DNA of 64,000 bases. Origin: an uncultured Hellea sp. (GTDB lineage Bacteria > Pseudomonadota > Alphaproteobacteria > Caulobacterales > Maricaulaceae). The translations under genes and the position numbers were made by a program. Where the stretch lies: the NCBI GenBank assembly GCA_938007935.1, contig CALLMD010000013.1, positions 20,912 through 84,911 on the forward strand, given 5' to 3'. Positions 23,460 to 28,543 of this stretch are shown here, piece after piece (position 1 is the stretch's first letter; every line of letters begins with the position of its first letter). The notes under the pieces are model-generated. The model did not search any database. It was not told where the DNA came from and saw only the letters and a program-made list of their open reading frames with translations.

Positions 23460-24404
23460 TTAAAACGTTGCCCGAAAGGCTTCAATGAATCGATTTAAAT
23501 CACTTTCTTGCAAGTGATTAATGCCCGCTGCGGCGCTACGGCCTCCGCCCGTTTCAAATTGCAGCGCCAGTTTATCGGCGCCTTCGCGCTTAGATAATGG
23601 CGCGCGGATACTAACGAGGAATCCGCCAGCCTGCTGGGTGAGAATAGCGTGAGCCCGATTTGGATTATCTTGTGCCAACTGATTACCATAAACGCCAGAA
23701 ATACGGCGCGACCCAGCGGCGTCCGCAAGGGTAATGACATGACCTTTTTCAGTTTGGTCAATGACCTTTGCCTGCTTGGCATTGGCAAGATCAGTTTCAT
23801 AACCGGCCTCTAGCTTATTAAATACAGTTTTATTTTCAGCCAAAAACGTCATTGGAGTCTCAAAAGGCGCAAGCGCGCGGTAAAGGTCAGCGGGATGATA
23901 AAGCAGGTCCTCAACTGAGCCGCCATAACCATTATAATTAACAAGCATGCCGAGCCTATTGAGCTGTTCTAGGGGAAAATCATGCCCCGCCGCTTTGCGC
24001 GTAGCAAGCGCTGGAAAGTTATCGCCAAATGCAGCCGTCACGGCCCAAGCCAAATATTCACCGTCAAGGGCTTCATTGATTAACATGGCGGTGCACATTT
24101 CTGGCGAGGTATCGATAACCGAAATCAGATTTGGATGGTCGGGAATATCACCCGCATTATGGTGATCCACATAAAAGACTGACGCGTTGGCATCTAAAAT
24201 CCGCCGTAAATCATCAGCGTTACTGCGCATGGAAATATCAAGCACAGTCACATAATCACCGCCCTTGGCATCAACGCGGCTAAGCAATTTGATGTCGCGC
24301 TTGCGCCCCGTGACTAAAACGGCTTCACGCGGTTCAGCAAGGCGAAGCTGGACGAGAGATAATATTCCGTCTGCATCACCATTAAAAACATCAAAGCACT
24401 TCAT
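23460..24404 (-). CDS. DHH family phosphoesterase
   Basis: FNGDADG, YVDHH, C-terminal DHHA1-like TGGGRSAAAG; start revised to ATG 24404, directly after the cysNC stop. Confidence 0.85.
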   Translation of the reverse strand: MKCFDVFNGDADGILSLVQLRLAEPREAVLVTGRKRDIKLLSRVDAKGGDYVTVLDISMRSNADDLRRILDANASVFYVDHHNAGDIPDHPNLISVIDTSPEMCTAMLINEALDGEYLAWAVTAAFGDNFPALATRKAAGHDFPLEQLNRLGMLVNYNGYGGSVEDLLYHPADLYRALAPFETPMTFLAENKTVFNKLEAGYETDLANAKQAKVIDQTEKGHVITLADAAGSRRISGVYGNQLAQDNPNRAHAILTQQAGGFLVSIRAPLSKREGADKLALQFETGGGRSAAAGINHLQESDLNRFIEAFRATF

Positions 24405-24405
24405 G

Positions 24406-26318
<1,913 letters not shown>

Positions 26319-26319
<1 letters not shown>

Positions 26320-27425
26320 TAGAAATACCCCTCTTCTTTTTTCTGCTCCATTGAAGCGCCCGCATCCGAATCAATGACCCGCCCTTGTCGCTCCGATGAT
26401 GTTGTTAAAAGCATTTCCTGAATAACATCAGGCAGTGTATCAGCTTCACTTTCGACCGCCCCTGTTAAAGGGTAACAACCTAGTGTTCTAAACCGTACCA
26501 TTTTTTCTTCGATCTTTTCATCGGGTCCAATTGGCATCCTATCATCGTCCACCAGAATCAAGACGCCGTCTTTTTCAACAACAGGACGTTTCTTGGAGAG
26601 ATAAAGCGACGGAATTTGAATGTTTTCCTTGTAAATATATTGCCAGATATCCAGCTCAGTCCAATTCGAGATAGGAAAGACGCGCATGCTCTCACCCTTA
26701 TGAACGCGTGTATTATAGATGTTCCAAAGCTCAGGGCGTTGGTTCTTTGCATCCCAACGGTGATTTTCAGACCGGAAACTAAAGATACGCTCTTTGGCGC
26801 GAGATTTTTCTTCATCGCGGCGCGCCCCGCCAAAAGCTGCGTCAAATTTATACTTATCTAAAGCCTGCTTTAAGCCCTGTGTTTTCATGATGTCCGTATG
26901 AACCGCTGACCCATGGGTGAACGGTCCAACCTTATCAGCTTTGCCTTCGGGGTTGATGTGAACGATTAAGTCCATGCCAACTTCTTTGGCGCGGCGATCA
27001 CGAAATTCGATCATTTCTTTGAACTTCCACATCGTATCAACATGCATGAGCGGAAATGGCGGTTTGGATGGATAGAAAGCTTTTTCAGCTAAGTGCAACA
27101 TAACCGAGCTATCTTTCCCCACGGAATAAAGCATGACGGGGTTTTCGCATTGTGCGGCCACTTCGCGCATAATATGAATGCTCTCGGCTTCAAGCCTGTC
27201 CAAATGCGTCATACGCAATTTAGACTCGCCAGAAAGCTCCATCTCAAGCGCATCGAGCTTGACCAAAGCCTCTTCCAAAGTCTTGAGCGTACATTGTCCG
27301 CCCTCTTTGAGACGGGCAATGCCCTTCCCATCATTGAGGATCTTTCGCGAAACCGTCGAAAGGGATTGGCCATTCGCTGCGGCAAAGGCTTCAACTCGGG
27401 CTACAAAATCAGTTATCAGTGTCAT
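26319..27425 (-). CDS. cysD: Sulfate adenylyltransferase subunit 2 with a 71-aa N-terminal Cro-like HTH extension
   Basis: CysD core from M27212 ([50 protein letters not shown]); upstream in-frame region open to ATG 27425 (or GTG 27452). Confidence 0.93.
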
Positions 27426-27435
27426 ATTTACCAAT

Positions 27436-27453
27436 CGTGGGATATATCCCACG
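27436..27453. promoter_or_regulatory. Perfect 18-bp palindrome, putative operator
   Basis: CGTGGGATA|TATCCCACG, 10 bp upstream of the extended cysD ATG. Confidence 0.65.
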
Positions 27454-27580
27454 TCCTATTTAGGCGCTCCTATAATGAGAAATTCAGAAAATAAAAGAGT
27501 TTTTTTCATCTAAGCGAAAAAGGGCTTGCCCGAACAGCCAAGCCCGCTTAATCAGCGCGCAGACCAATCTCTTTGTCTTT

Positions 27581-27688: not shown

Positions 27689-28543
27689 CTATTCTAGCAA
27701 TACACGCTTGGGGTGCTTGCCCTCTACCATGCCCATAAAGGGTGGGTGGATCGAGTAGCCCAATAAACGCTGTATCGTTTCAGAAAAAGTTTTCACGCGC
27801 TCTTTGGGTATGGAGAGGGAAAAGTTTTCCTGTGTCCGGCAAAATGGCGCGCAATATTGCGCAGTCAAACACATGCGAGAGGCCTGACTTTCATTCGCCC
27901 CGCCCCCATGCCAGAGCGTTCCGAGAAAAAAGAGGACTGAGCCTTTGGGCATAACAGCTTTGATAAGTTTGGCTTTATCTTCATCGCTGGGCATATGATC
28001 GCCCCAATTATGCGACTGGGGGATTAGCACCGTCGCCCCATTATCTTCGGTAAAATCATCAACTGCGATAATTGTGGCTGCCCCCAAAGCCCGTCTTGGA
28101 CGCGGCCATGGATAGAACCCATCATCATAATGTAGGGGCTGCGCGGCCTCATTGGGGTGAATATTTATGACCTGAAGCTGAGAGAGCAAATAATTAGGTT
28201 CAAAAATTTGATCAAGCAAACCCATAATCAGCGGGTGCTCCACCATAGGGTTAGCAATATCCGTTTCCGCCATCATGGAATAAAGACGCTGCGTGGCCAA
28301 ACCTTCAAAATTATTGCGCCCAGCCTTATGCTTAAACCGCGTAAGCGCATCAGCCTTAAGAGCATCCATATCCTCTGGCGCAAAAAGATTTTCGAGAATT
28401 ATGTAACCGTCGCGGTTAATCTGCTCCATGACCTCGGCGATTAGGGCCTTATCAACACCCTCTTGTGTGCCAGCCGTAGATTTATACCGCCCCGCAAGGT
28501 CGGCAGTTGTTATGGTCTCAGATGTTATAATTGAATCAGTCAT
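27689..28543 (-). CDS. Phytanoyl-CoA dioxygenase family Fe(II)/2OG dioxygenase
   Basis: QPLHYDDG (HxD), DNGATVLIPQSH, distal LWHGGG. Confidence 0.9.
   Translation of the reverse strand: MTDSIITSETITTADLAGRYKSTAGTQEGVDKALIAEVMEQINRDGYIILENLFAPEDMDALKADALTRFKHKAGRNNFEGLATQRLYSMMAETDIANPMVEHPLIMGLLDQIFEPNYLLSQLQVINIHPNEAAQPLHYDDGFYPWPRPRRALGAATIIAVDDFTEDNGATVLIPQSHNWGDHMPSDEDKAKLIKAVMPKGSVLFFLGTLWHGGGANESQASRMCLTAQYCAPFCRTQENFSLSIPKERVKTFSETIQRLLGYSIHPPFMGMVEGKHPKRVLLE

Follow-up and report, generated by a model that had tools for sequence, protein, structure and literature searches.

A Cro/C1-like helix-turn-helix domain fused to the sulfate-assimilation enzyme CysD in Hellea and related Alphaproteobacteria, and a candidate operator upstream of the fused gene

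The stretch of DNA considered here, called the window below, comprises 64,000 nucleotides (nt) from an uncultured marine Hellea sp. (Alphaproteobacteria, Caulobacterales, Maricaulaceae; GenBank assembly GCA_938007935.1, contig CALLMD010000013.1, positions 20,912 to 84,911, forward strand), and the coordinates are those of the window. Its minus strand carries, from the ATG at 27425 to the stop codon at 26319, an open reading frame (ORF) of 368 amino acids (aa), starting with MTLITDF, in which CysD, the small subunit of ATP sulfurylase, is preceded by a domain predicted to have a Cro/C1-like helix-turn-helix (HTH) fold; the product is referred to as HTH-CysD. The N-terminal domain takes up residues 1-62 (27240..27425, minus strand), with helices predicted at residues 3-18, 22-30, 35-40 and 47-64, on the basis of conservation, the phage protein family phrog_7669, an AlphaFold2 model and Foldseek comparisons. 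The inter-domain linker, residues 63-70 (27216..27239, same strand), is variable in length and composition between species, and the catalytic core, residues 71-368 plus the stop codon (26319..27215, same strand), was delimited with NF009214, PF01507 and the alignment to the CysD structure 1ZUN_A. The 71 codons from 27425 to 27213 are stop-free and in the same frame as the core, whose methionine lies at 27212, with exactly the coordinates and the peptide reported by a first-pass annotation, which had been made by a model from the letters of the sequence. The ORF listing of the window gives the frame as 26319..27452, opened at a GTG. This GTG at 27452 was rejected as a start: it lies inside the palindrome described below, and its spacing to the ATG ranges from 20 to 27 nt between species, often not a multiple of 3, so that it is not kept in frame and is not a conserved start.

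The core is a complete CysD. The protein passes the curated equivalog cut-offs of both NF009214 (542.4 bits vs 413, residues 65-368) and TIGR02039 (504.7 bits vs 396.6), the PP-loop motif SxGxDS is present, and G103, K104, D105 and S106 are invariant in the alignment. The CysD of P. syringae (PDB 1ZUN_A, residues 24-325) aligns to residues 71-368 only, at E 1e-144, and has no counterpart to residues 1-70, which agrees with the earlier remark that ordinary CysD lacks such a domain. Canonical CysD, as in E. coli and P. syringae, shares with the protein described here the full equivalog core, the ordinary cysD-cysN(C) gene order and the start/stop overlap, whereas it begins at the position of residue ~70 and has no DNA-binding domain. 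Only one match to cysD was found in the source genome, and sulfite reductase is encoded elsewhere in it; therefore, HTH-CysD must also be a working enzyme, and is inferred to be the working ATP sulfurylase small subunit of the cell. Downstream on the minus strand, the start of cysNC (24406..26319; GTPase subunit plus adenosine 5'-phosphosulfate (APS) kinase, with the Pfam domains GTP_EFTU, GTP-eEF1A_C and APS_kinase) overlaps the cysD stop in the sequence TAATG, and it is followed by a third gene of 314 aa (23460..24404, minus strand) with weak DHH and weak RecJ similarity, below the curated cut-offs. The same 314-aa gene follows cysNC in three metagenomic loci (L013, L015 and L016), and it may be an NrnA-like phosphatase of 3'-phosphoadenosine 5'-phosphate (pAp), clearing the by-product of the use of 3'-phosphoadenosine 5'-phosphosulfate (PAPS).

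The fusion of the domain to CysD is real, conserved and translated. In 20 related genomes the extension is stop-free and continues in frame into CysD, the whole open frame measuring 369-405 aa; the set covers 15 of 17 genomes from the genus and, outside it, two other genera of the same family and one more family of the order. A word-indexed search returned 167 protein clusters with the domain (219-439 aa, nearly all ~366-410 aa), from Hellea, Robiginitomaculum, Amphiplicatus and others, and all of them carry PF01507 and are annotated in the databases as plain CysD. In a scan of one genome per GTDB species, which gave 130 matches and from which 80 loci were kept, all 80 are in-frame fusions (linkers of 6-54 aa; total length 363-411 aa unless cut short by the contig), found in Hellea, Litorimonas, Robiginitomaculum, Maricaulaceae, Marinicaulis, Amphiplicatus, Parvularculaceae, Hyphomonadaceae and a Sphingorhabdus/Sphingomonadaceae clade; the survey of homologues that had been proposed with the first-pass annotation thus places the fusion in 80 species-level genomes, so that it is not a private mutation. 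The cultured Hellea balneolensis DSM 19091 (L044) has the same fusion and the same palindromic site. In an alignment of 18 diverse fusions a 62-aa block with 21 invariant residues, among them S21, S23, T24, S26, R27, K28, N31, D32, G33, G35, R38, K40, G42, G43, C45 and T46, is followed by a variable low-complexity linker and then by the core, and these fusions, together with the 80 loci, bear out the view that a distinct domain has been grafted onto CysD. Pairwise differences in the domain among 11 Hellea loci fall on codon positions 1, 2 and 3 in the numbers 527, 259 and 1817, and by this third-position bias the domain frame is under purifying selection.

It might be supposed that the extension lies outside the functional protein, with translation starting at M27212 and the upstream frame being a separate small gene or a leader joined by error. 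A methionine does exist at 27212 in the source genome, and in some public gene calls a 297-aa CysD comes after a small ORF. However, methionine stands at the core-start position in only 41 of the 80 species; in the other 39 the residue is Leu (mostly CTG, CTC or CTT), Phe, Pro or Ile, and because there is no Met at the core start CysD is producible in these species only as the fusion. The split calls also have another source. Four public calls (L013-L016) show a protein of 68-87 aa and then a shorter CysD, and a three-frame reading of the "small gene plus cysD" candidates P0127, P0277 and P0278 led to their rejection, since it revealed indels or a deletion: L013 and its twin L014 have an indel within the last helix of the domain, L015 has one at a homopolymer A-run in the linker, and L016 has lost ~45 residues inside the core. 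Neighbouring genes are broken too in the L013-L016 assemblies, and P0046, which is the L013 protein in unbroken form, was found on 93 contigs. The split cases are therefore assembly artefacts, given the frameshift or deletion seen and the other broken genes of those assemblies, and a stop or frameshift between a small HTH gene and cysD is not a feature of the homologues. With all 80 loci in frame and the domain under purifying selection, an extension outside the functional protein is considered very improbable. On the L016 contig (L016:4269-6698; JGI 3300002056) there is also an 809-aa call joining CysD, CysN and CysC in one frame; because the same contig carries a deletion immediately before this call, an artefact of assembly is more probable than a real triple fusion.

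The fold of the domain was approached through models. AlphaFold2, run from a 42-sequence alignment, gives four helices with a predicted local distance difference test score (pLDDT) of 87, and the same four helices appear in the full-length HTH-CysD model, where the pLDDT of the linker falls to ~60. Among the top 50 Foldseek matches in the PDB nearly all are Cro/C1 HTH proteins, including C.Esp1396I, 434 repressor, HipB, ClgR, SinR, 434 Cro and DdrO, with template modelling (TM) scores of 0.55-0.63, root-mean-square deviations of 2.1-2.8 A and probabilities up to 0.95. In BFVD, uncharacterised proteins of Caudovirales rank first, with TM scores up to 0.84, and entries named HTH_XRE, Cro and CI come next. 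Read by eye, and by eye only, a 20-residue stretch of the domain resembles the end of the XRE domain, 'isriErGkr.Psletllkla'. On these models the N-terminal domain can confidently be assigned a Cro/C1-type HTH fold, in line with the Cro-like HTH recognised at first sight in the unaided reading of the sequence. As to its family, a hidden Markov model (HMM) of phrog_7669, a PHROGs family to which that resource assigns no function, matches residues 1-55 at E 3.7e-7.

The domain is also widespread as a protein of its own. An exhaustive profile search of 1.84 billion representatives yielded 399 proteins with the domain, most of them free-standing, 60-110 aa long and all labelled 'hypothetical', and the free-standing homologues match phrog_7669 at 1e-11 to 1e-6. 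In the loci L017 and L019 the domain gene lies at a strand-switch junction in a phage replication/recombination region (YqaJ, RecT, DnaA_C, AAA_25, VRR_NUC). In L140 and L141 an S24 / HTH_3 CI-like repressor gene adjoins it in divergent orientation, which puts it in the Cro position, and DUF669, Trans_reg_C and Prim-Pol lie downstream of it, while L018 has the downstream genes of L140 and L141, an AraC-type gene directly upstream and an S24 gene 3.6 kb away. The likeness to small prophage proteins that had been pointed out in the first-pass annotation is thus found again among the free-standing homologues of phages and prophages, which lie in early regions of prophages and two of which occupy the Cro position facing an S24 CI-like repressor. 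A tblastn search with the free-standing P0169 against 50,697 GenBank phage records gave nothing at E 1e-3, so that the phage link rests on phrog_7669, BFVD and the metagenomic prophage contexts. The profile matches indicate that the domain descends from the small phage regulator family phrog_7669. The members of this family differ from HTH-CysD in being free-standing proteins of ~65-105 aa with no assigned function, and the CysD-fused subgroup differs from them in its own near-invariant 26-residue signature. The loci L140, L141 and L018 are integrative elements with a Prim-Pol/DUF3987 primase, DUF669 and Trans_reg_C. A further homologue, P0209 (207 aa), combines a phrog_7669-type domain at residues 1-60 with a canonical HTH_3 (XRE) domain at 75-129, two HTH modules in one regulator.

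Upstream of the fused gene lies a perfect 18-bp palindrome, CGTGGGAT-AT-ATCCCACG (27436..27453), which ends 10 nt before the ATG and is a candidate operator with the consensus GTGGGAT-N2-ATCCCAC. No other upstream block is strongly conserved across 11 Hellea loci; within the palindrome the central 2 nt vary. With a site defined as at least 12 of the 14 positions of the consensus within 170 nt upstream, for which the chance expectation is ~1.5e-3 per region, the candidate operator stands upstream of 20 of 20 domain-bearing cysD genes of relatives and of 0 of 15 domain-less ones, G051 among them (11 of the same order and 4 of sphingomonads). In the 80-species set 120 sites with at least 11 of 14 matches were found in 77 loci. 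Two sites occur in many genera; the proximal lies at ~-16 to -42, the distal at ~-76 to -148, and the distance between them is mostly 69-96 bp. If the promoter lies at a Hellea-like distance from the ATG, the paired sites would flank it. No perfect copy of the pattern other than the cysD site turned up in 41 genomes, and with up to one mismatch allowed the cysD site is still the sole match in most of the domain-bearing ones. A regulon scan of the source genome returned six 2-mismatch matches, all inside ORFs, where ~9 are expected by chance; relaxed motif scans of the same genome gave no candidate operator near sulfite reductase and no evidence of targets beyond cysD. A small palindrome, CCTAAATAGG (27455-27464), lies directly upstream of the main one; since other Hellea loci do not share it, it is probably fortuitous.

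The half-site cores TGGGA and TCCCA lie about one helical turn apart (centres ~9-10 bp), as expected for a dimeric HTH. The same inverted symmetry could instead form a hairpin with a stem of 7-8 bp in the 5' leader of the mRNA and thereby act on mRNA stability or translation, whether apart from the domain or as the RNA that the domain targets, the more so as the hairpin would stand 7-10 nt before the ATG, probably within the transcript, and a Shine-Dalgarno sequence is not visible. The substitution pattern speaks against such a stem. From the outermost mirror positions inwards, single-sided changes number 68, 21, 3, 4, 0, 22 and 54 and compensated ones 5, 0, 0, 0, 0, 0 and 6; the 21 changes at pair 2/15 and the 22 at pair 6/11 would break the pairs, and none is compensated. 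Two half-sites for a protein, each drifting on its own, fit this pattern where an RNA stem does not, and the bases beside the 2-nt centre, mostly T and A, are as expected for half-sites. The second copy ~70-95 nt further upstream in many species and the modelled fold of the domain, that of an HTH binding double-stranded DNA, point the same way, so that control by an RNA hairpin is judged improbable.

In the window the putative sigma-70-like promoter of cysD (27469..27497, minus strand) consists of a -35 box CTTTTA (27492-27497), a 17-nt spacer and a -10 box TATAGG (27469-27474), from which the palindrome is inferred to lie at roughly +9 to +27, a lac-operator-like position. Further upstream a terminator-like hairpin, GGGCTTG...CAAGCCC followed by TTTTT (27517..27545, minus strand), is placed between a tRNA-Leu(UAA) gene on the opposite (+) strand and the cysD promoter. 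A similar hairpin with a T-run occurs in several Hellea loci, and it would shield cysD from read-through. The nearest upstream gene on the minus strand, PhyH (27689-28543), lies beyond the antisense tRNA relative to the hairpin.

Sites of a similar type, on the pattern TGGGA-N4-(T/G)CCCA, accompany some relatives of the domain in the intergenic region before their genes. The L018 homologue, which is 44% identical, has ATGGGA-CGTT-TCCCAT ~20 nt before its annotated start and, ahead of the first Met of the domain, TGGGA-TTTT-GACCA between TTGACA and TACAAT boxes; the CI/Cro-like intergenic region of L140 and L141 contains TGGGAT-TA-TGCCCA and related repeats. The more distant member in L017 has a different perfect palindrome, CATGTCT-TTTT-AGACATG, just before its ATG. 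The TGGGA / GCCCA repeats upstream of the domain gene in the three elements (L140:2878-3001, L141:887-1010, L018:4900-5052) resemble a CI/Cro-style switch. In one more protein, P0195 (L142:2915-3460, ENA ERZ650164), the domain is N-terminal to a NadE-like carbon-nitrogen hydrolase, and a perfect palindrome, CCCGTGTAT-AATA-ATACACGGG, overlaps a TATAAT box, 3 nt before the ATG; the L142 contig is of low coverage and the P0195 ORF is truncated. NAD synthetase is another ATP-using enzyme of the PP-loop type. The P0195 fusion suggests that CysD is not the only enzyme to have captured such a cassette of HTH domain plus operator.

On a maximum-likelihood tree built from 56 CysD cores, 3 label changes are enough to explain which of them bear the HTH domain, vs 16.7 when the labels are shuffled. 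The fusions of Hellea, Robiginitomaculum and Maricaulaceae share one clade (support 100/99) with the sphingomonad fusions and with one domain-less sphingomonad, G051, and among 31 relatives of Sphingorhabdus only 4 have the fusion. The distribution fits an origin on one or a few occasions, after which the gene moved laterally along with its operator and losses occurred now and then; in G051, domain-less within the HTH clade, the site has gone as well as the domain.

The evidence leads to a proposal in which HTH-CysD would be an autoregulating trigger enzyme, with its N-terminal domain binding the palindrome at its own operon, and this reading is regarded as likely. By the architecture derived from HMMs, alignment and models, a catalytic domain and a domain of DNA-binding type are joined in one polypeptide. 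The domain, as a dimer, would bind GTGGGAT-N2-ATCCCAC, which in Hellea sits between the putative promoter and the ATG, and binding would most likely repress, rather than activate, the operon cysD-cysNC-DHH. The predicted outcome, negative autoregulation with a single target, is the minimal model. The control of its own operon that the first-pass annotation had tentatively ascribed to the fusion finds backing in a conserved, genome-unique palindrome co-occurring with the domain, its predicted binding site.

Several observations weigh against this proposal. The principal one is that the co-occurrence counts of domain and site are not independent events, because the HTH-bearing genes cluster in the CysD-core tree; they reflect partly shared descent, and the domain and the site could simply travel together. 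No Pfam family matched residues 1-71 at E <= 10, HTH_3 and related models included; Pfam and NCBIfam models on the extension gave only noise, e.g., H-NS and GrpE, and PDB profile searches with the domain gave only sub-threshold hits to LacI, HipB and CytR (E 0.2-0.5). The Foldseek E-values are weak, 0.02-0.4 overall and 0.36 or above for the PDB matches, because the domain is small. Three of the 80 loci have only degenerate TGGGA...TCCCA variants of the site, the promoter comes from inspection by eye of the aligned Hellea upstream regions (cTTTAC-N17-TAnAtG), a consensus promoter scanner having made no such call, and, as said, no Shine-Dalgarno sequence is visible before the ATG at 27425.

Shared descent and the missing Pfam HTH match are also what would be expected if the palindrome were the site of a separately encoded regulator, or a structural element of the promoter, with the domain serving contact with CysN or oligomerisation and the co-occurrence arising from joint inheritance or transfer of the 5' end of the gene; in the tree ~3 label changes suffice for such a history. 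Against it, a dedicated free-standing regulator kept in three orders would not usually have just one perfect site per genome, and no second copy of the domain was found in the source genome. Moreover, the modelled fold is that of the DNA-binding Cro/C1 proteins, free-standing homologues in Cro positions have similar TGGGA-type sites, and G051 lost domain and site together. A role of this kind for the palindrome and the domain is therefore held to be rather unlikely, and autoregulation by HTH-CysD is preferred.

Beyond the minimal model of autoregulation, the catalytic state of the enzyme, that is, the binding of ATP, APS or CysN, might tune DNA binding, by a speculative analogy with BirA, where the adenylate does so, and with PutA. 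A more extended version, possible though on balance doubtful, would make HTH-CysD a ligand-gated one-component sulfur sensor and the domain with its site a portable Cro-derived HTH/operator cassette, captured repeatedly by PP-loop enzymes and moved between alphaproteobacterial orders. As a sensor, occupancy of the active site (ATP/sulfate vs APS) or engagement of the CysN GTPase would alter the oligomeric state or domain arrangement and thus the occupancy of the operator, and the first enzyme of sulfate assimilation would read the flux directly and set its own synthesis. As a cassette, its captures would be CysD here and the NadE-like NAD synthetase in L142.

Enzymes with DNA-binding domains are established as trigger enzymes, with BirA, NadR, PutA and RbkR as examples (PMC8249747, PMC5397151). 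In full-text literature searches neither an HTH-CysD fusion nor an enzyme-borne regulator of sulfate assimilation was found, and the earlier remark that no such fusion had been described accords with this. BirA, the classic case of trigger-enzyme logic, resembles HTH-CysD in having an N-terminal HTH on an adenylate-forming (acyl- or, here, sulfo-) enzyme that uses ATP and in acting through a palindromic operator on a single biosynthetic operon, the operator and target being predictions on the HTH-CysD side. However, BirA has a winged HTH and a core like that of class II aminoacyl-tRNA synthetases, represses bioABFCD and not its own gene, and has biotinyl-AMP as an established corepressor, whereas HTH-CysD has a Cro/C1-like HTH by its models, a PP-loop core that needs CysN, and its own operon as the predicted target. 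NadR combines an HTH of the XRE type with nicotinamide mononucleotide adenylyltransferase and ribosylnicotinamide kinase, and PutA combines a ribbon-helix-helix domain with proline dehydrogenase. Both are, like HTH-CysD, enzymes with an N-terminal DNA-binding domain acting on their own pathway, and PutA represses its own gene, as predicted for HTH-CysD; their catalytic folds and pathways are not those of HTH-CysD, and experiments have established their regulons and effectors. To our knowledge, no member of the NadR or PutA type acts in sulfate assimilation.

On the side of the domain, the best structural matches are the Cro/CI proteins and the controller (C) proteins of restriction-modification systems, such as C.Esp1396I, 434 Cro and 434 repressor. 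These are small, helical HTH proteins that act as dimers on palindromes covering or adjoining their own promoters, as is likewise predicted for HTH-CysD. The domain of HTH-CysD is unlike them in having no match to the Pfam HTH_3 profile and in being fused to a chromosomal metabolic enzyme outside any prophage.

Sulfate assimilation in gammaproteobacteria, CysD included, is controlled by free-standing LysR-type factors such as CysB and Cbl, through which the regulation of the pathway is mainly understood, and its regulation in marine Caulobacterales, Maricaulales and Parvularculales is, as far as we know, essentially uncharted. If the proposal is true, HTH-CysD would join the short list of trigger enzymes formed by BirA, NadR, PutA and RbkR as the first one for sulfur, and would offer a clear example of the domestication of a Cro-type phage regulator as an appendage of an enzyme, in a system as small as a 62-aa domain, an 18-bp site and one operon. 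The family phrog_7669 and its ~400 homologue clusters would thereby gain a first functional assignment, as probable DNA-binding regulators of TGGGA-type palindromes.

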